Source of the DNA: Candidatus Omnitrophota bacterium
GTDB taxonomy: Bacteria > Omnitrophota > Gorgyraeia > Gygaellales > Profunditerraquicolaceae
Length of the DNA stretch: 64,000 nt
Direction of reading: 5' to 3'
Assembly: GCA_035402765.1 (NCBI GenBank)
Contig: DAONDX010000003.1
Location: 50,682 to 114,681 of the forward strand
The number at the start of each line of letters is the position of its first letter. Within the stretch, counting starts at the first letter, position 1. Position numbers and translations under genes: made by a program. Below the pieces are notes generated by a model. That model worked only from the letters and a program-made list of their open reading frames with translations, searched no databases and was not told the origin of the DNA. This document shows, piece after piece, positions 1,525 to 46,860 of the stretch.

Positions 1525-1599
1525 GTTTTGCCGAAACTTTTAAGTCTTGCAAAACGCTCCGAGCCATCTTTACATGTGGCGAGGAGCCTTTGCCAACAA

Positions 1600-2595
1600 C
1601 TATTCTTCCTTACTCTTCCTGGTCATCAAATCATTGACTGCCTGCCGAGGAGACTTATCTTTATAAAGCAAATGGTATACTTCTTTAATAATAGGCATAT
1701 CTATTTTATATTTCCGGCTTAAGGCATAGGCAGATTTTGCCGTAGGAACGCCTTCTGCCACCATCTGCATATGACGGCAAATTTCTTTTAGGCTTTTTCC
1801 TTTTCCGATCAACTCTCCAACATTGCGGTTACGGCTTTGCTGGCTAATACAGGTGGTCACCAAATCGCCTAGTCCGCTAATCCCGCTGAAAGTTTCCGGT
1901 TTTGCCCCCATAGCCTTGCCTAATCTGGAGATCTCAGCCAGCCCCCGGGTAAGAATAGCAGCTTTAGTATTAGTCCCGAAACCTAAACCGTCGGATACGC
2001 CGCAGGCAATCGCGATGACATTCTTTAAGCTCCCCCCCAGTTCAACACCGGTTACATCCGGGTTAGTATAAACCCGGAATCTATTTGTGCTAAATACCGC
2101 CTGGATAGTTTTACGTATTTGCTTATTATTAGAGGCCGCCACGGCGGTTGTGGGAATCTCTTTAGCTACTTCTGAAGCAATCGTCGGACCGGATAAAACA
2201 GCCAGTTTAACCGGCCCAAGCTCTGCCTGAATTACTTCCGATATCCTTTTAGAAGATTTTACTTCAATGCCTTTGGTTACGCTTAAAAATATAGTTTTTT
2301 TAGCAAAAAGGCCTGTCATCTTTTTCAGCGTCAGACGGGTATACTGCGAGGGAATTGCCAATACGATAATTTCTTTATCCGCCACCGCTTTTTTAATATC
2401 ATTGGTGATGGTGATATTTTGCGGAATTTTTATTCCCGGCAGGAACCTGGGGTTTTGGCGGGTCTTAATCATGACTTTGCTATAGTCGGCGAAAGCCCCC
2501 CAAAGCGTAACCGGATAGCCTTTTTTAGAAAGCAATACCGCAAGAGTTGTTCCCCAGCCACCGTCTCCAATCACTGCAATGCGTAATTTAGACAT
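1600..2595 (-). CDS. gpsA: NAD(P)H-dependent glycerol-3-phosphate dehydrogenase
   Basis: 331 aa with an N-terminal GxGxxG motif (IAVIGDGGWGTTLA) and end-to-end GpsA-family similarity. Confidence 0.9.
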   Translation of the reverse strand: MSKLRIAVIGDGGWGTTLAVLLSKKGYPVTLWGAFADYSKVMIKTRQNPRFLPGIKIPQNITITNDIKKAVADKEIIVLAIPSQYTRLTLKKMTGLFAKKTIFLSVTKGIEVKSSKRISEVIQAELGPVKLAVLSGPTIASEVAKEIPTTAVAASNNKQIRKTIQAVFSTNRFRVYTNPDVTGVELGGSLKNVIAIACGVSDGLGFGTNTKAAILTRGLAEISRLGKAMGAKPETFSGISGLGDLVTTCISQQSRNRNVGELIGKGKSLKEICRHMQMVAEGVPTAKSAYALSRKYKIDMPIIKEVYHLLYKDKSPRQAVNDLMTRKSKEE

Positions 2596-2598
2596 AGC

Positions 2599-3345
2599 TT
2601 ATTTCAAGTCCCTCTTTTTATTTGTTCTTAACATGGCTAATTCCCAGGCATAATCGTAAAGGTGCAAACCCTTGCTCACGGCAATAATTTCTCCGTCCTC
2701 AACTCCGATTTCTTCAGCCATATATTGTTTTACCAGCTGCAAACCTCCCAAATTCGAAGGGAAACCGCCCCAAAGATCCCAGGAACGAAAGTAAAGTATA
2801 AAATGTAATTTACCATAACGCAGCCGCGTATCAATTAACCTTAGGCAAGGTGGATCAACCAGTTTAATATCCGAAGGCATGCCGATTTCCATGACTGCCT
2901 GATTAGTGCCGGGGCCTTTCTCCTTGTACATTTTAATTACTTCTTCCACCTGGTTGACATTTAAAGGCATATCCGAAATCAATTCCCGGCCGTTTAAATT
3001 CTGTTTGATCCTGACTTTAGGATCAACTAATCTTTCTCCGTAAGTATAATCTTCAGTTTCGGTTTTGGCTCCGGTTAAAAGGTAACTTAAATACCCCTGG
3101 ATATAGTCCATATCGGTAGGAGCGGGAATATTCATTCCTTCCGGGATAATCGGAATGATTTGATGGCCGGGCCTCTTCACCCGGACAGAAACAAAATCAA
3201 ACTCCAATCTTTTTTGCCCGGTATAGCTGCCTCGGGTGATAGTATACAAATGCCCTTGGTCTAAGATCGCGGATAAACATTGGAACCAGGCGTCATCAAG
3301 ATCAAAAGCATCGATAAAAACCGGTTTTAAGAATTCTTCGGCCAT
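2599..3345 (-). CDS. thymidylate synthase family protein (ThyA-like; divergent, possibly archaeal/methanogen type)
   Basis: The ThyA core is recognisable: DPPCL...LYFRSWDLWGGFPSNLGGLQLV...GLHLYDYAWE, compared with ThyA PPCH...LYQRSxDxxLGxPFNIASYALL...GDxHIY. The residue after the catalytic Cys is Leu rather than His. Confidence 0.55.
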   Translation of the reverse strand: MAEEFLKPVFIDAFDLDDAWFQCLSAILDQGHLYTITRGSYTGQKRLEFDFVSVRVKRPGHQIIPIIPEGMNIPAPTDMDYIQGYLSYLLTGAKTETEDYTYGERLVDPKVRIKQNLNGRELISDMPLNVNQVEEVIKMYKEKGPGTNQAVMEIGMPSDIKLVDPPCLRLIDTRLRYGKLHFILYFRSWDLWGGFPSNLGGLQLVKQYMAEEIGVEDGEIIAVSKGLHLYDYAWELAMLRTNKKRDLK

Positions 3346-3743: not shown

Positions 3744-5180
3744 TTAAGCAAAAGGTAATTTGACGGTAAAAGTTGTTCCTTGGTTGATCCGGCTCTCTAG
3801 TTCAATGGAGCCGTTATGATTCTTAATAATATTATGACAAATTGACAAGCCTAATCCGGTACCCTGCCCTTTAGTTGAGAAAAAAGGCATAAAAATATTT
3901 TTAAGGTTGGTTTCCGGAATGCCCATGCCGGTATCGGTGATTTGAATTAGAGCATAACGATTCTGAAAATTACTCGTGGTAATTTTAATTACTCCGCCTT
4001 CAGGCATAGACTGATAGGCGTTAATGATGATATTCAGAAAAACTTCTTGCAATTGGTCCAGATCGCCCGAAATTTTAGGTATATTTTTTTCAAAGATCTT
4101 TTCAATTTTAACTTCAACCGATGGTAAATTATTATAGAGCGCTAAAGGCAAAGCCAGTTCAATAATTTCATTAATATCCACAGGCTCAAGGGTAAGGGCG
4201 GATTTACGGGCGAATTTTAAAACCCGGTCAACCAACTTACGTATACGATTTACTTGGGAATCAATCAAATCAATTGTCTCTGCGAATTTAGAAGCGAGTT
4301 TTTCCCCTTTGAGCATTACCAATCTTCCGGAAATGACAAAAAGCGGGTTATTTATCTCATGCGCAATCCCGGCAGAAAGCTGCCCCAGAGCGGCTAATTT
4401 CTCAGCCTGAAAGATCTGGTATTCCAGCTTTTTTGTTCGGGTAATATCTTTAGCAATAAATACATAGCCGGTCAATTTACCCTGGGCATCCAAAAAATTA
4501 TTTACCGTCAACCTGACCGGGATAGTGGAACCGGCATTAGTCAGCAGGTTAATCTCTGATTCATATTTGCCGAATTGATGCACGTGTTTAAGAATAGCTT
4601 CAAGTTCCAAAACAGCTTTATTGCTGCTATGCAGGATACTTGCGTGCTTAAAGATGATCTCCGGTTTACTATAACCGAACATCTTTTCGCAACCCATCCC
4701 GAAATAGGTAATTAAACTATCCAGGTTGATTACATAGAGAGCATATTCGTCAATACTGGAAATAATATTCTTCAGGGAATCATCAATATTCTTGAGCGAA
4801 TTTTTACCTTCCTGGCTTTCAGTGATATCATGGCCCAACAATAAGCTGCCCTGTATCCGCTCATGCTTATCAAGAATAGGAGTGACATTCCAGGATATTA
4901 ATCTGGAATCACCTTGGCTGCTTTTAAGGTGACATTCAAAATCCTTGGTTCTTCGATAAGTTAAAGCGTCATCTAAAACCGCCTTAAACATCTCTCTTTT
5001 AATCGTGTTATCGTCGTTTTTAAAGAGTATGCTAAGCCAGTTTTTGCCTACAATTTCAGCGGAGTTTAGCCCAACCGTACCCTGAGTTTTTTTATTACAA
5101 AGAACGATGTTTCCATTCTGATCTAAATAAAGCACTAATACCGCGGCATCCTCTATCAGTTTAGAAAAAATATCTTTCAT
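3744..5180 (-). CDS. PAS-domain sensor histidine kinase
   Basis: 478 aa with two PAS-like regions, an H-box AHEINNPLFVISG, and N/G1/G2 ATPase boxes (IIINAYQSM, DTGMGIP, GTGLGLSICHNIIKNHNG). Confidence 0.85.
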   Translation of the reverse strand: MKDIFSKLIEDAAVLVLYLDQNGNIVLCNKKTQGTVGLNSAEIVGKNWLSILFKNDDNTIKREMFKAVLDDALTYRRTKDFECHLKSSQGDSRLISWNVTPILDKHERIQGSLLLGHDITESQEGKNSLKNIDDSLKNIISSIDEYALYVINLDSLITYFGMGCEKMFGYSKPEIIFKHASILHSSNKAVLELEAILKHVHQFGKYESEINLLTNAGSTIPVRLTVNNFLDAQGKLTGYVFIAKDITRTKKLEYQIFQAEKLAALGQLSAGIAHEINNPLFVISGRLVMLKGEKLASKFAETIDLIDSQVNRIRKLVDRVLKFARKSALTLEPVDINEIIELALPLALYNNLPSVEVKIEKIFEKNIPKISGDLDQLQEVFLNIIINAYQSMPEGGVIKITTSNFQNRYALIQITDTGMGIPETNLKNIFMPFFSTKGQGTGLGLSICHNIIKNHNGSIELESRINQGTTFTVKLPFA

Positions 5181-5200
5181 ATCGGCGCCCGTAGTAAATA

Positions 5201-5225
5201 AGCGGGTGATCGGAATCGAACCGAC
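5201..5225 (-). pseudogene. orphan 3' fragment of a Gly-like tRNA (T-arm and acceptor 3' strand, no 5' partner adjacent)
   Basis: The reverse complement GTCGGTTCGATTCCGATCACCCGCT shows a canonical T-loop TTCGATT and acceptor 3' strand CACCCGC. That strand matches the 5' acceptor GCGGGTG of the fragment at 5395-5429. Confidence 0.4.
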
Positions 5226-5299
5226 ATAATTGTTGCTTGTCCCGCCACCTCAGATTTTTCATGTACAGCGGGATACCGCCGCTATCTATTATAGTTCTA

Positions 5300-5370
5300 A
5301 GCGGGAGAGGGGAATCGAACCCCCATTCATAGCTTGGAAGGCTATTGTTCTACCACTGAACTACTCCCGC
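5300..5370 (-). tRNA. tRNA-Gly (anticodon TCC)
   Basis: The reverse complement reads GCGGGAGTAGTTCAGTGGTAGAACAATAGCCTTCCAAGCTATGAATGGGGGTTCGATTCCCCTCTCCCGCT. The acceptor is perfect, the anticodon loop is CTTCCAA, and the discriminator is U. Confidence 0.85.
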
Positions 5371-5394
5371 ATTAAACTTTAAGATAGCGGCGGG

Positions 5395-5429
5395 AGAAGG
5401 CTATTATTCTACCATTGAACTACACCCGC
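5395..5429 (-). pseudogene. 5' fragment (positions ~1-35) of a Gly-like tRNA immediately upstream of tRNA-Gly
   Basis: The reverse complement GCGGGTGTAGTTCAATGGTAGAATAATAGCCTTCT is near-identical to positions 1-35 of the adjacent tRNA-Gly, with 3-4 mismatches. It then diverges into CCCGCCGCTATC, which is inverted-repeated (GATAGCGGCGG) on the far side of tRNA-Gly. Confidence 0.5.
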
Positions 5430-5438
5430 AAAAAAAAA

Positions 5439-5524: not shown

Positions 5525-5647
5525 TAGAATTTTTTGTTTTCTAAAAAATTTTACTTCGAGCGTTTCCTTTGGAGAATATCCAGGCTTAACGAGAAGTAAA
5601 TTAATTCGATCTTAAAGAACAAAAGAGAATTCAAATGCGCGTAATAT

Positions 5648-5936
5648 TTAAGCCGACGAGAGGATTTGAACCCCCGACCCGCTACCAGAGGGGCTCTGCC
5701 CCTATGGCGCTCCTCACTAACGTTCGTCGCTGTTACCCCGAATCCGCGGGGGAAGTTTTCCCCCGCACCCCTTTCGGGTCGGACGTATATTTAAGCCGAC
5801 GAGAGGATTTGAACCCCCGACCCGCTACCAGAGGGGCTCTGCCCCTATGGCGCTCCTCACTAACGTTCGTCGCTGTTACCCCGAATCCGCGGGGGAAGTT
5901 TTCCCCCGCACCCCTTTCGGGTCGGACGTATATTTA
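5648..5936 (-). repeat. two perfect tandem 143-bp units directly 3' of tRNA-Thr; each unit is a ~75-nt conserved module fused to a copy of tRNA-Thr positions 41-73
   Basis: An exact period of 143 bp is seen by eye (TTAAGCCGACGAGAGG at 5648, 5791 and 5934). Each unit contains ...TTCGGGGTAACAGC...GCGCCATAGGGGCAGAGCCCCTCTGGTA followed by GCGGGTCGGGGGTTCAAATCCTCTCGTCGGCTTA on the minus strand. Confidence 0.8.
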
Positions 5937-6009
5937 AGCCGACGAGAGGATTTGAACCCCCGACCCGCTGTTTACAAAACAGCCGCTCTACCAACTGAGC
6001 TACGTCGGC
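5937..6009 (-). tRNA. tRNA-Thr (anticodon TGT)
   Basis: The reverse complement reads GCCGACGTAGCTCAGTTGGTAGAGCGGCTGTTTTGTAAACAGCGGGTCGGGGGTTCAAATCCTCTCGTCGGCT, with anticodon loop TTTGTAA. Confidence 0.85.
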
Positions 6010-33537: not shown

Positions 33538-33725
33538 GTCCACCTGGACGACACCAACGCAATACCACTTAGCGTTGGGTGTATTGTCTACCTAGACGAC
33601 ACCAACGCAATACCCCTTAGCGTTGGGTGTATTGTCTACCTAGACGACACCAACGCAATACCGCTTAGCGTTGGGTGTATTGTCTACCTAGACGACACCA
33701 ACGCAATACCGCTTAGCGTTGGGTA
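33538..33725 (-). repeat. tandem array of four 48-bp units; each unit is a bulged ~10-bp hairpin followed by the near-palindromic 12-mer GTCTAGGTAGAC (the gene-proximal copy varies to GTCCAGGTGGAC)
   Basis: The period is 48 bp (palindromes at 33586, 33634 and 33682; variant at 33538). Each hairpin is CCAACGC-N11-GCGTTGG. The units differ only at one loop position (A/C/G). Confidence 0.8.
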
Positions 33726-44609: not shown

Positions 44610-44751
44610 AACTCCTCCTCATCTACCTAGACGACACCCGCGTAGAGTGCCCACTACTGTTTATAATATCTCCTCGATACTGCGTTAATCAACACACATT
44701 AAGTGCAATTTCAATTCACCCGGAGTGTCTTGAATTAATTTTTAATAAATA

Positions 44752-45154
44752 AAGCAGGCAGAATAAGCCGGGTTCTGTCTTGATGCCTGCCTGCCGGCAG
44801 GCAGGCGAATGCTACATCGCAGTGGCTATTCCTCTCAATTCCCGCGTTACCACGGGAACTTTAGCAGTTTACCCGAGATTGTTTTCCGTTGAAACGGAAA
44901 GCGCGCCGAATCAGCACTCATCTCCTATTCTACTTTGCTCCACGTAGAGATTGCCCGTTTCACCTCTCCGCTTGGAAGCGGATACTCGTCTCTGTGGCTC
45001 TCTTGCGCTTTTGGCGCAAGATCCCAAGGGATTATCCTCTTAGCGGTTTTCTCAAACCGCTAAGGACGGGAATTACCCGTTACGTTATTCTCCGGAGCCC
45101 GGACTTTCCTCCCGCCATTGAAACAATGACGGGCAGCCACATCCTGCCTGCTTA
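44752..45154 (-). ncRNA. rnpB: RNase P RNA (bacterial type A)
   Basis: The minus strand contains GGAGGAAAGTCCGGGCTCC (the universal P4 5' strand), ACAGAACCCGGCTTA (P4 3' strand), GGTAACGCGGG (the P10/11 region), and a terminal P1 helix AAGCAGGCAGG/CCTGCCTGCTT. Total length is ~403 nt. Confidence 0.8.
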
Positions 45155-46606: not shown

Positions 46607-46700
46607 TGGGCCCACAGGGACTCGAACCCCGGACCAATTACCAAAGGGGCTCTGCCCCTATGGCGCTTTGCTGTTACCCCGAAATCGTGGGGAAAAGTTT
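46607..46700 (-). repeat. single copy of the conserved ~75-nt module fused to a duplicate of positions 41-73 of the adjacent CAT tRNA (homologous to the units at 5648-5936)
   Basis: The minus strand reads ...CGATTTCGGGGTAACAGCAAAGCGCCATAGGGGCAGAGCCCCTTTGGTA followed by ATTGGTCCGGGGTTCGAGTCCCTGTGGGCCCA. The tRNA-derived part is identical to tRNA 46787-46860 positions 41-73. Confidence 0.6.
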
Positions 46701-46786
46701 AATTACCTTTATAGCTCCTTCGAGCTTGAACCTGGATAAATTCTTTAGGTATCGCTCGAAGTGAATTTTTACTTCGTAAAAATTCA

Positions 46787-46860
46787 TGGGCCCACAGGGA
46801 CTCGAACCCCGGACCAATTGATTATGAGTCAACTGCTCTAACCGACTGAGCTATGGGCCC
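46787..46860 (-). tRNA. tRNA-Met or tRNA-Ile2 (anticodon CAT), elongator type
   Basis: The reverse complement reads GGGCCCATAGCTCAGTCGGTTAGAGCAGTTGACTCATAATCAATTGGTCCGGGGTTCGAGTCCCTGTGGGCCCA. Confidence 0.85.

Follow-up and report, generated by a model that had tools for sequence, protein, structure and literature searches.

Two perfect copies of a short, non-coding sequence follow an intact tRNA gene in the Candidatus Omnitrophota window studied here (the whole 64-kb stretch of DNA that was analysed), and the question that they raise is what kind of genetic object they represent. The gene, tRNA-Thr(TGT), is located on the minus strand at 5937-6009 (ARAGORN; Rfam tRNA model, 69.5 bits), and its positions 41-73 recur in each of two head-to-tail units of 143 nt directly 3' of it, unit 1 at 5794-5936 and unit 2 at 5651-5793, likewise on the minus strand. 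Exact string matching and Tandem Repeats Finder agree on 100% identity between them, the latter reporting 5644-5969 with a period of 143, 2.3 copies, 100% matches, and a score of 652, and a third period opens after unit 2 with the 7 nt TAAATAT (5644-5650, minus strand). A previous reading made from the sequence only had placed the tandem at 5648-5936, which is accurate to within 3 nt. The inserted DNA (110 nt) contains no ORF, the direct repeats around the units measure 40 bp (33 from the tRNA and 7 from its trailer), and an integrase, sought around both unit-bearing sites of the window, was not found, the neighbors being housekeeping genes. The best explanation is that the units are two copies of one member of a phylum-wide, ORF-less family located at the ends of stable-RNA genes in Ca. 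Omnitrophota, mostly 3' of tRNAs, which appears to constitute an undescribed kind of site-specific insertion element.

Read in the direction of the tRNA, each unit consists of a spacer, a short antisense segment (S*), a core, and the tRNA copy (X). S* (CCGACCCG; 5918-5925 in unit 1, 5775-5782 in unit 2) is antisense to tRNA-Thr positions 44-51 (CGGGTCGG), which comprise the variable loop and the start of the T-stem. It is followed by an AAAGGGG junction and hairpin P2, UGCGGGGG-AAAACUU-CCCCCGCG (5888-5917 and 5745-5774), then by the conserved junction GAUUCGGGGUAACA and hairpin P3, GCGACGAACG-UUA-GUGAGGAGC, with two tandem G·A motifs (5852-5887 and 5709-5744), and finally by hairpin P4, GCCAUAGGGG-CAGAG-CCCCUCUGG (5828-5851 and 5685-5708), the block of highest conservation. 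P2 and P4 are the two GGGG/CCCC hairpins noticed in the sequence-only reading, and its assignment of the unit end to tRNA-Thr 41-73 also holds, as the 33 nt of X (5794-5826 and 5651-5683) are identical to this part of the gene and span the end of the anticodon stem, the variable loop, the T-arm, the acceptor 3' strand, and the discriminator. Its module of ~75 nt has to be enlarged to a conserved non-tRNA part of ~100 nt (S*, AAAGGGG, P2, the junction, P3, and P4). Similarly, the junction does lie at position 40/41, but positions 39-43 form the anticodon stem's 3' strand, so that it is within the stem and not immediately 3' of the loop.

A 22-mer of the core, GCGCCATAGGGGCAGAGCCCCT, occurs three times in the window and in none of 100 shuffled versions, the third occurrence (46645-46666) being located behind tRNA-Met(CAT) (46787-46860). 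Here, a decayed family member occupies 46607-46696 on the minus strand (nhmmer E = 2.7e-15, model positions 28-103 only; E = 2.8e-24 for unit 1 against the same family profile) and consists of a 5'-truncated core (46640-46696) and a repeat of tRNA-Met positions 41/42-74 (46607-46639). The AAAGGGG junction and the P2 5' strand are missing, only a few nucleotides are left of P3, and ~45 nt of trailer are also duplicated in diverged form. The recurrence at 46607-46700 described previously is therefore a genuine family member, but not a full module.

The earlier suggestion that the module is a family rather than a local accident is confirmed. A 19-mer of the core is present at 79 genome loci in Ca. 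Omnitrophota, 74 of them with full conserved flanks, and at further metagenome loci. In most loci, a same-strand tRNA ends ~75-140 nt before the 19-mer, and the units, ~100-190 nt in length, almost always share the orientation of a tRNA that ends 8-25 nt before them, with >15 tRNA identities represented. Nearly always, the module abuts a 3' copy of the tRNA just upstream. The fetched DNA includes 134 tRNAs; the core follows 66 of them, 58 have their own last 16 nt duplicated, and a duplicated tRNA end without the core was encountered in only two cases. The units are not a general trailer of all tRNAs, the case that the sequence-only reading had named as refuting it, as only two of the seven tRNAs in the window carry the module and eight related tRNA-Thr loci lack it. 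The next tRNA of the operon often follows within 12-90 nt, and syntenic unit positions are common to many genomes (Thr-unit-Tyr-Gly, Lys-unit-Leu-Gly, and Met-unit-Val). 5S rRNA genes are also targeted: the architecture is the same at their 3' ends and appears in inverted form at their 5' ends, and each such gene is intact, with the unit reading outward. Two genomes have retained the 5'-end unit, which runs antisense to the rRNA operon. The tRNA copy is missing from some members; some stand immediately before a full tRNA, and others belong to mRNA leaders and have promoter-like sequences of their own. The genes behind these leader-type units encode an MS-channel-like protein, RecA, a CpxP/Spy-like protein, and an unknown 77-aa protein, among which no functional theme was found. 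A comparison of the units of one MAG showed differences in P3 and P5 and no near-identical copies at separate sites; the window itself contains the tandem pair and one decayed copy. No gene association was found for the units either, their neighbors being syntenic housekeeping genes. The element is not described in the literature consulted on Omnitrophota, tRNA and structured RNA, partial tRNA repeats, and Velamenicoccus, in a 2026 complete-genome preprint, or in the 224-motif paper.

Across the family, the core comprises three to five helices (P2, P3, P4, and an optional P5) and the invariant single-stranded motifs AAAGGGG, YUUUCGGGGUAACAG, and GCCAUA. P2 shows two-sided compensatory changes at four pairs (51 units), with TGT/ACG (30) and TGC/GCG (23) as the main variants besides TAT/ATG, CAT/ATG, TCT/AGG, TAC/GTG, TTT/AAG, and AGT/ACT, and its outer U·G wobble is kept in 41 of the 51 units. 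Such changes also occur within orthologous sets, where one P2 pair is C-G in the window and in L087 but U-A in L005, L085, and L090. P3 exists in 69 distinct sequences, every one of which forms a hairpin, with a closure of either GCGA/GAGC or GUCC/GGAC; the tandem-G·A closure GCGA/GAGC returns in P5, which has GNRA or C-GAA-G loops. In divergent members, P4 covaries as well (UUCAGAGGGG/CCCCUAUGAA, UUAGGAGGGGG/CCCCCUCCUAA, and the extended GGGGAAACC/GGUUUCCCC). Compensatory changes, peripheral hairpins of variable length, conserved junctions, and strand-specific G·U pairs, the general marks of a structured RNA, are thus all found at the level of sequence and argue that the core evolves as a folded RNA. 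Folding energies of the single sequence are weak (z = -1.7 in RNA sense, -2.35 antisense, and -2.5 as DNA), and the structural case therefore rests on covariation. An AAAGGGG/CCCCUUU pseudoknot and an HDV-like double-pseudoknot fold, judged by eye, were rejected because divergent members covary for the local P4 hairpin. Two other candidates were also discarded: an extra helix that would pair YUUUCGG with the end of S* and AAA, taken from the single-sequence MFE fold, shows no own-versus-other specificity (p = 0.43), and in a tRNA-like fold of the unit the acceptor 3' strand has no partner, with neither ARAGORN nor Rfam recognizing a tRNA or tmRNA there.

At gathering score, Rfam 15 (4227 models, including the hammerhead, HDV-like, twister, pistol, and hatchet ribozymes, tmRNA, Y RNA, and riboswitches) matches only the tRNAs and the RNase P RNA in the window, and the scan that had been proposed as a check thus assigned the unit to no family. 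In E-value mode, the best match on the unit is RF02937 (Clostridiales-2 RNA), with 20.7 bits against a gathering score of 58.6. Both share A-GGGG-UG followed by a GGGG/CCCC hairpin, but the alignment is limited to AAAGGGG and P2, and RF02937 comes from a different phylum. This sub-threshold and partial match was taken as a chance or very distant resemblance.

The two target-matching parts of the unit are S* and X. S* is a 5' segment of 8-19 nt antisense to the variable loop or T-arm of its own target, and the S* flank fits the tRNA copy of its own unit better than the copies of other units (p = 2.6e-11). At differences between X and the tRNA, the better partner of S* is the true T-arm of the tRNA in 24 cases and X in four. 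In the Thr and Met units, the duplex of S* with the start of X comprises only 8-9 bp. X itself starts between tRNA positions 41 and 61, in the variable loop, T-stem, or T-loop, and the direct repeat of the target extends from there to the 3' end (+0 to +11), giving 17-40+ bp across the family. Along X, mismatches to its own tRNA become fewer: the T-stem 5' strand has 13.8% and the T-loop 7.3%, with insertions in the loop of 14 of 55 copies, whereas the T-stem 3' strand has 3.3% and the acceptor 3' strand only 1.8%. Such polarity is the pattern expected if the left part of X were owned by the element and the right part were target DNA. X runs through the discriminator and sometimes includes 5-26 nt of trailer, which is the signature of a duplication at the DNA level. 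CCA is present in X only where the gene encodes it; lacking post-transcriptional CCA and sometimes carrying trailer, X was not copied from mature tRNA.

Occupancy varies among related loci, with zero, one, or two units as well as scars, in line with the copy-number variation foreseen in the sequence-only reading. Of 23 metagenome loci with the identical tRNA-Thr 39-mer, eight are empty, two have a single unit, two contain diverged tandems, and others are scars or hybrids. The same trailer follows X in L090 (occupied) and the tRNA in L092 (empty), and occupied and empty states interleave in a tree of the flanking gene. Diverged tandem units are found in the relatives L086, L061, and L087, and those in L061 and L086 represent different subfamilies behind one tRNA. 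The exact pair is present in the window contig, yet the count of two is insecure: L081, an independent assembly of the same strain with an identical upstream flank of 600 nt, has only one unit, lacking unit 2 and being otherwise identical in sequence, which makes the doubling either a recent unequal recombination or an assembly ambiguity. The self-identical tract of ~183 nt (143 + 40, period 143) exceeds usual assembly k-mers, and two further contigs, L082 (k141) and L083 (JGI), stop inside the unit. That the second unit is an assembly artifact, the real genome having one unit or another number, is nevertheless somewhat doubtful, since it needs reads joining core-X-spacer-S*-core, which a one-unit genome would not yield, and unequal recombination is easy with direct repeats of 40 bp. 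The diverged pairs in L086, L061, and L087 cannot be artifacts. A genuine doubling may have arisen by unequal recombination or slippage between the 40-bp repeats, or by a second insertion.

In our judgment, there is an even chance that the units are non-autonomous, guide-bearing, RNA-structured insertion elements that recombine within the last 13-25 nt of stable-RNA genes. The element would join the gene in the T-stem 3' strand and acceptor 3' strand and would supply a complete new 3' end; through this position of the crossover, the tRNA would keep an intact end, and the original one would be pushed ~100-190 nt downstream, where it would form the right-hand part of X. Located 8-25 nt behind the tRNA and in the same orientation, the element would be co-transcribed with the tRNA operon, and in the transcript S* could pair either with X (helix P1) or with the T-arm of the tRNA itself. 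The enzyme that moves the element would have to act in trans, as no recombinase, reverse transcriptase, or nuclease partner was identified among the neighboring genes. A large serine recombinase located between two unit copies in L072 was considered as an autonomous form, but, present in one of ~75 loci and inserted where X ends, it looks like a separate element. Several observations weigh against mobility. Every presence/absence difference could be explained as precise deletion between direct repeats, the compared flanks being 70-89% identical, and the units of one genome have diverged, unlike those of active MITEs or IS elements. The syntenic positions and the compensatory changes in orthologous sets would fit in-place selection on a host-useful RNA equally well, and members without a tRNA copy, before full tRNAs, or in mRNA leaders, together with the folding z-score of -1.7, also speak against insertion. 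A stronger version, in which the units form a new class of RNA-based mobile element whose small structured RNA is catalytic or a cofactor of a trans-acting recombinase or reverse transcriptase, whose S* guide homes to tRNA and 5S ends, and whose replacement gene end preserves the host gene, seems rather improbable at present.

The two main alternatives read the same features differently. The units may be a dispensable, immobile host RNA of tRNA operons that is co-transcribed and released by tRNA-processing nucleases, its S* invading the T-arm of the nascent tRNA and X serving as a decoy for S*, thereby tuning the maturation or turnover of that tRNA or playing another cis-acting role in processing or stability. 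Which of the S* pairings forms would depend on the conserved core, perhaps together with a ligand or protein. We consider this possible but unlikely. It would account for the constant tRNA orientation at a distance of 8-25 nt with the next operon tRNA often close by, for the conserved syntenic positions with compensatory changes inside orthologous sets (C-G versus U-A in P2), for the absence of recent intragenomic bursts, and for the subtypes that serve as leaders of tRNAs and mRNAs. The preference of S* for the real T-arm, where X has T-loop changes or insertions, points the same way. On the other hand, eight of about 21 related loci with an identical tRNA-Thr are empty and scars exist, so that any function of the unit must be dispensable, and only two of the seven window tRNAs have a unit. 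Running antisense to the rRNA operon, the 5S 5'-end unit cannot act on a co-transcript, and two genomes have kept it all the same. Moreover, a decoy needs only the T-arm of X, whereas the copy extends through the discriminator and at times into the trailer, and two units of different subfamilies behind one tRNA are not readily explained.

Much less probable, and in our view very unlikely, is that the units are inert scars or deletion derivatives (CIME-like) of tyrosine-integrase islands, the module being an attP arm beside attR. An insert enclosed by direct repeats of the tRNA 3' portion with the tRNA left intact, an identity that, as in attL/attR pairs, peaks toward the 3' gene end, tandem accretion, and the one large-serine-recombinase element at the X end in L072 agree with this origin. 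However, no integrase is located between tRNA and module in any of ~95 loci, and Phage_integrase is the nearest ORF in only 2 of 112 neighbors, one of which (in L044) is a gene upstream of the tRNA and outside the unit; the integrase adjacency that had been proposed as a check is hence missing in and next to the units. The RNA-type covariation, hairpins of variable length, and conserved U·G are foreign to protein-binding att arms, S* would be left unexplained, and one core serves 15+ tRNAs, 5S rRNA, and mRNA leaders. The idea of an attP identity block in the anticodon loop also fails, since X starts at positions 41-61 across the family, outside that loop, and near-perfect identity is limited to the T-stem 3' and acceptor 3' strands. 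Finally, 2.9 million viral contigs contain no match to a 21-mer or to a gapped two-block pattern. The alternative offered in the sequence-only reading, a miniature derivative or small structured RNA, comes close to the guide-bearing insertion element favored here, in contrast to its anticodon-loop integrase scar. S*, the RNA-type covariation, and the 5S rRNA targets were absent from that reading.

Comparison with known systems places the guide-bearing insertion element between several of them. Like tRNA-targeting tyrosine-integrase elements, prophages, and CIMEs, the units have a tRNA 3' direct repeat at both ends (33 + 7 nt in the window), a regenerated tRNA, 3'-end identity, tandem accretion, and presence/absence differences among relatives. 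They differ in their size of 100-190 nt, in having neither an integrase inside or beside the insert nor a crossover in the anticodon loop, in their structured, RNA-like core and target-antisense segment, and in using the same core for 15+ tRNA species and 5S rRNA. The integron attC site and the CTX-phage attP(+) hairpin (XerCD) offer another parallel: the inverted S* and the start of X could fold into a duplex imitating a double-stranded target, in which T-stem, T-loop, and T-stem would correspond to the arm-spacer-arm layout of recombinase core sites, with a mismatched or bulged center (tandem G·A, or a T-loop with an extruded hairpin), and after integration the inverted arm, loop, and hybrid site would lie together at one end. 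In the units, however, a highly conserved core of several helices, marked by a conserved U·G, tandem G·A, and GNRA loops, takes the place of the "loop", the Thr and Met duplexes are short (8-9 bp), and no ssDNA replicon or phage was found. This likeness is architectural only.

Group I and II introns (IGS, EBS-IBS), IS110 bridge/seek RNAs, and TnpB/IscB omega RNAs share with the units a structured scaffold with short target-matching segments near the joining point, and a target specificity that varies by lineage while the scaffold stays constant. The units are far smaller than group I/II introns, match no Rfam family, have no adjacent recombinase or nuclease gene, and give a target duplication of 17-40 bp, which none of those systems does. 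R2 retrotransposons, SIDEs, and Neurospora retroplasmids are parasites of stable-RNA genes that are co-transcribed with the host RNA; a folded 5' RNA element takes in host-gene sequence, and the retroplasmids integrate via acquired tRNA sequence, leaving tRNA repeats. The units would resemble them in these respects but differ in that no linked or adjoining reverse transcriptase was found and X does not derive from CCA-bearing mature tRNA, although a reverse transcriptase acting in trans is conceivable. Small, non-coding, structured, multi-copy, and dispensable, the units are also similar to MITEs and REP-like repeats. In contrast to these, they have no fixed terminal inverted repeats, as S* and X, their sole inverted pair, are specific to the target and change with the tRNA, and no short target duplication of fixed length; they are strictly specific for stable-RNA ends, and their copies within a genome are old and diverged.

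If the guide-bearing insertion element is real, the Omnitrophota, a poorly known and uncultured phylum, carry a widespread, unannotated structured RNA family tied to tRNA and 5S genes, which would account for partial tRNA "genes" in their genomes and for a class of assembly breaks. For RNA biology, it would add a conserved core of three to five helices with invariant junctions and no known function. For mobile-element biology, it would be a candidate for guide-directed targeting of stable-RNA genes, protein-free in cis, standing between integrase att sites, folded single-strand att sites, and guide-RNA systems. Were the host-RNA alternative true instead, the units would represent the first cis-acting antisense-plus-decoy device against an individual tRNA. 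One further feature concerns the form in which the element may be copied. The mRNA-leader copies have a circularly permuted order, S-loop-S*-core instead of S*-core-S, and perfect head-to-tail doublets are present both in this window and in L001, which together leave room for a circular intermediate copied by rolling circle.

The tRNA-Thr(TGT) gene of the window (5937–6009, minus strand) heads an array of two 143-nt non-coding units on the same strand, arranged head-to-tail, with unit 1 (5794–5936) directly after the tRNA and unit 2 (5651–5793) running into a third period that breaks off after 7 nt. Tandem Repeats Finder reports a period of 143 with 2.3 copies and 100% matches, and the last 33 nt of each unit are identical to tRNA positions 41–73, confirming, for the sequence as assembled, both the perfect doubling and the tRNA-derived unit ends described in an earlier sequence-only reading. 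That reading had placed the junction at position 40/41 at the edge of the anticodon loop and sized the non-tRNA module at ~75 nt; position 40/41 in fact lies within the anticodon stem, and the module measures about 100 nt. Three copies of the most conserved non-tRNA block are present in the window, against none in shuffled sequences. The third copy, at 46.6 kb behind tRNA-Met(CAT), bears out the recurrence at a second tRNA and is a family member, but it is truncated and decayed. Housekeeping genes surround both the Thr site (NAD(P)H-hydrate dehydratase, ACPS, PdxJ, FtsH, PAS histidine kinase) and the Met site (rpoD, GGDEF/HD protein, RNase H, RNase P RNA, ruvAC), and no integrase, transposase, or reverse transcriptase was found near either site in the window. 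The RNase P RNA is of the bacterial class A type (44748–45153, minus strand; 158 bits, Rfam) and lies ~1.2 kb from the tRNA-Val/tRNA-Met cluster. A second small hairpin repeat (ACTTCGAGCG...ATCCAGG...CTCGAAG) is found in tRNA spacers (window 46717–46762, minus strand, and 5553–5597, plus strand; 4455–4507 in the metagenome locus L094), and at tRNA-Met it occupies the place of the decayed unit's missing 5' part.

From 5' to 3', the unit consists of a short, AT-rich spacer; a 6–19-nt segment (S*) in antisense to variable-loop or T-arm sequence of the adjacent upstream tRNA; an invariant AAAGGGG; hairpin P2; an invariant YUUUCGGGGUAACAG; hairpin P3, which is very variable in length; GCCAUA followed by hairpin P4 (CCAUAGGGG-CAGAG-CCCCUNUGG); in most members, hairpin P5 (AGCGA-stem-GAGCGAC); and X, which repeats the tRNA from a start at position 41–61 through its last nucleotide, sometimes with 5–26 nt of trailer. 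The Thr units of the window represent a short form without P5. The three outer pairs of P2 are TGT/ACG in 30 units and TGC/GCG in 23, and also occur as TAT/ATG, CAT/ATG, TCT/AGG, TAC/GTG, TTT/AAG, and AGT/ACT; nearly all units have U·G as the outermost pair, and RNAalifold detects two-sided changes at four P2 pairs among 51 units. All 69 distinct P3 sequences (7–45 nt) form a hairpin. The closing motif is GCGA...GAGC (C-G plus tandem sheared G·A) in some and GUCC...GGAC in the others, GNRA or C-GAA-G loops are frequent, and P5 has the same closure. P4 is invariant by construction among the loci collected with the 19-mer GCCATAGGGGCAGAGCCCC, a conserved core string, and covaries in divergent members (UUCAGAGGGG/CCCCUAUGAA in L061, UUAGGAGGGGG/CCCCCUCCUAA in L050 and L104, and an extended GGGGAAACC/GGUUUCCCC in a subtype located directly upstream of tRNAs). 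Single-sequence folding energies of the unit were uninformative. The pattern of change across these helices is that of a folded RNA, and the conservation of U·G together with the tandem G·A pairing would point to RNA rather than single-stranded DNA.

Scanning one genome per species with the 19-mer yielded 79 loci, 74 of which also have the conserved flanks, which establishes the module as a family and not a local accident, as had been proposed. Nearly all loci carry the label Ca. Omnitrophota, and the complete Ca. Velamenicoccus archaeovorus genome is among their sources; the remainder are labeled PVC group or Planctomycetes, and the few oddly labeled loci are probably binning errors. A same-strand tRNA ends about 75–140 nt 5' of the 19-mer in most loci, and the host tRNAs include Arg (five anticodons), Lys (two), Thr (two), Met, Trp, Gln (two), Gly, Phe, Asp, Ser, and Val. 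Across all fetched DNA, the core lies downstream of 66 of 134 tRNAs, and 58 of the 134 have their own last 16 nt copied within 350 nt, only two of these copies being without a core. Since neighboring tRNAs of the same operon (Val, Leu, Gly, Tyr) rarely have the core and only two of the seven tRNAs in the window carry it, it is not a general tRNA trailer, an explanation that the sequence-only reading had itself raised against its proposal. Two scans of 2.9 million viral contigs gave no match to the family. A search of Rfam, suggested at the time, returned no family matching the unit, and the element is undescribed in the literature as far as this was searchable. A sub-threshold match to the Clostridiales-2 RNA (RF02937; 20.7 bits vs. 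a gathering score of 58.6) at 5717–5780 and 5860–5923 (minus strand) covers only AAAGGGG and P2.

A metagenome scan with a 39-mer of the window's tRNA-Thr (anticodon to 3' end) recovered 23 loci from related species, with flanks mutually 62–89% identical. Eight of them are empty, the tRNA-Tyr starting 15–35 nt past the tRNA-Thr. One unit with X is present in L085 and L090, two diverged units in tandem in L086 and L087, a scar or degenerate copy in L095 and L099 (in the latter only the remnant ...CCCGAAGGGGTG), a hybrid without X whose core adjoins tRNA-Tyr in L104 and L105, and the upstream-of-tRNA subtype in L094, L101, and the second unit of L105. The occupied L090 and the empty L092 come from one metagenome and have a common trailer, after X in the former and after the tRNA in the latter; thus, they differ by exactly spacer, S*, core, and X. 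Occupied and empty states are interleaved in a tree of the flanking gene. It follows that the element is dispensable, is cleanly gained or lost at direct repeats, forms tandems, and decays. Copy number, which had been proposed for checking, thus varies among related loci, and it may also vary in the window's own strain, of which an independent assembly (L081) contains a single unit and a flanking-gene gap of 688 nt vs. 831 nt in the window; two further contigs stop inside the unit. Two units are present in the window sequence, but their true number is uncertain, and the perfect doubling reflects either very recent unequal recombination between the 40-bp repeats or an ambiguous loop in the assembly. 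The upstream subtype (L094, L101, L104, and the second units of L087 and L105) lacks S* and P2, has the extended P4, and ends with GCGAC 0–3 nt short of the +1 nucleotide of a complete tRNA-Tyr or tRNA-Gly, thus forming the tRNA 5' leader; its hybrids with the downstream type are without X.

Units are also found at 5S rRNA genes (L050, L064), where one unit, oriented as usual, comes after the 3' end and a second lies at the 5' end in opposite orientation, its X being antisense to 5S nucleotides 1–38 and its S* matching. Neither arrangement disrupts the gene, and both units read outward. A host function based purely on co-transcription can hardly account for the antisense unit, which agrees with an insertion rule at the DNA level, "end of a stable-RNA gene". 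Four units (L020, L038, L056, L075) have no X and start with a local hairpin (GGTTCTTTCGC-loop-GCGAAAGAACC), such that S-loop-S* is a circular permutation of S*-core-S. Promoter-like hexamers were seen by eye just 5' of three of these (L038, L056, L075), and the genes downstream of all four are unrelated.

S* fits the X of its own unit better than that of other units (Mann–Whitney p = 2.6e-11). X differs from the tRNA by 13.8% in the T-stem 5' strand, 7.3% in the T-loop, 3.3% in the T-stem 3' strand, and 1.8% in the acceptor 3' strand, and 14 of 55 X copies contain a T-loop insertion of 1–20 nt, often a whole hairpin (GGUUC-UAG[hairpin]CG-GAGUCC). Among units whose X deviates from the tRNA, 24 have an S* that pairs better with the T-arm of the tRNA itself, 4 have one that favors X, and 7 show no preference, by a simple duplex measure that underestimates hairpin-bearing X copies; in this hairpin-bearing class, X departs from the tRNA toward pairing with S*, giving a three-way junction. 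We take the left part of X to be the element's own mimic of its target, the T-stem 3' strand and acceptor strand on the right to be target DNA or kept identical to it, and S* to be kept complementary to the target itself.

On both sides of about 70 units, the closest ORFs are housekeeping genes in conserved synteny (RRF 10, CT398-like 6, PTS EIIA 6, NAD(P)H-hydrate dehydratase 4, NusG 3). A search for adjacent integrases, likewise suggested earlier, gave little: Phage_integrase is the nearest ORF in 2 of 112 cases, and the only case located (L044) lies upstream of the tRNA, outside the unit. In L072, a large serine recombinase of 488 aa (Resolvase + Recombinase + Zn_ribbon_recom) lies together with two small ORFs (1586–3052) between two nearly identical unit copies, the insertion having apparently occurred where the tRNA-Arg 3' copy (X) ends, with CA at both junctions; we regard this as a separate element with X as its target.

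Taken together, the 3'-end direct repeat, the undamaged tRNA, the polarity of X, clean differences in presence or absence, repeated occupation of one tRNA by different subfamilies, and the 5S cases indicate that the unit is an insertion element, which we file as a miniature site-specific one. Recombination would take place inside the last 13–25 nt of stable-RNA genes, and, like tRNA-targeting integrative elements, the element would supply the gene with a new end. Unlike these, the unit is about 100–190 nt long without an ORF and has a conserved RNA-type core and an internal target-complementary segment beside the joining region. Based on its small size, this core, and the complementary segment, we propose a non-autonomous, guide-bearing element, moved by a putative trans-acting enzyme and co-transcribed with the tRNA, and give this proposal an even chance.

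Plain integrase scars, one of the candidates of the sequence-only reading, agree with the direct repeat and the intact tRNA but leave the covariation, S*, and the absence of integrases unexplained; this origin seems very improbable. The strongest rival, which we consider unlikely, is a dispensable cis-acting RNA of tRNA operons whose antisense segment and internal decoy would act on the neighboring tRNA. The conserved synteny of units, compensatory change inside orthologous sets, and the absence of recent intragenomic bursts argue for such a role, but the antisense 5S unit, the full-length gene-end copy including the trailer, and the numerous empty sites argue against it. An insertion element of the proposed kind follows the logic of tRNA-targeting integrative elements and of folded single-strand att sites and resembles guide-RNA systems, but does not have all the defining features of any of them; we see a small but real chance that it constitutes a categorically new RNA-based mobile element.

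Several further arrangements were observed at other sites. In the window, tRNA-Gly(TCC) (5300–5370, minus strand) sits inside a second tRNA-Gly-like gene (5200–5430) that is split into a 5' piece (GCGGGTGTAGTTCAATGGTAGAATAATAGCCTTC, then ...CCGCCGCTATC; 5381–5430, minus strand) and a 3' piece (AGATAGCGGCGG...TCGGTTCGATTCCGATCACCCGCT; about 5200–5290, minus strand). The acceptor halves of these pieces match, and 11–12 nt on either side of the inner tRNA-Gly are complementary; ARAGORN, with introns allowed, makes no call for the outer gene, and the outer pieces are absent from the relative L090. An intergenic tandem repeat at 33538–33724 (48 bp, 3.9 copies, 97% identical) lies between two minus-strand ORFs and contains a 7-bp inverted repeat (CCAACGC...GCGTTGG) in each copy. 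In L102 (metagenome contig Ga0268280_1000021), a tRNA-Tyr about 135 nt past the tRNA-Thr has a ~230-nt insertion in its anticodon loop, possibly a group I intron. Several hundred nucleotides separate tRNA-Thr and tRNA-Tyr in L088 and L102, with an apparent ORF of ~120 aa in a by-eye translation. Finally, L089 (metagenome contig Ga0265297_10002728) contains four tandem copies of a 41-bp repeat (atcgcgggatactcccgcgatgtgcttaaaattt...) between tRNA-Tyr and tRNA-Gly, just 5' of the latter, and the start of each copy resembles the tRNA-Gly 5' end.
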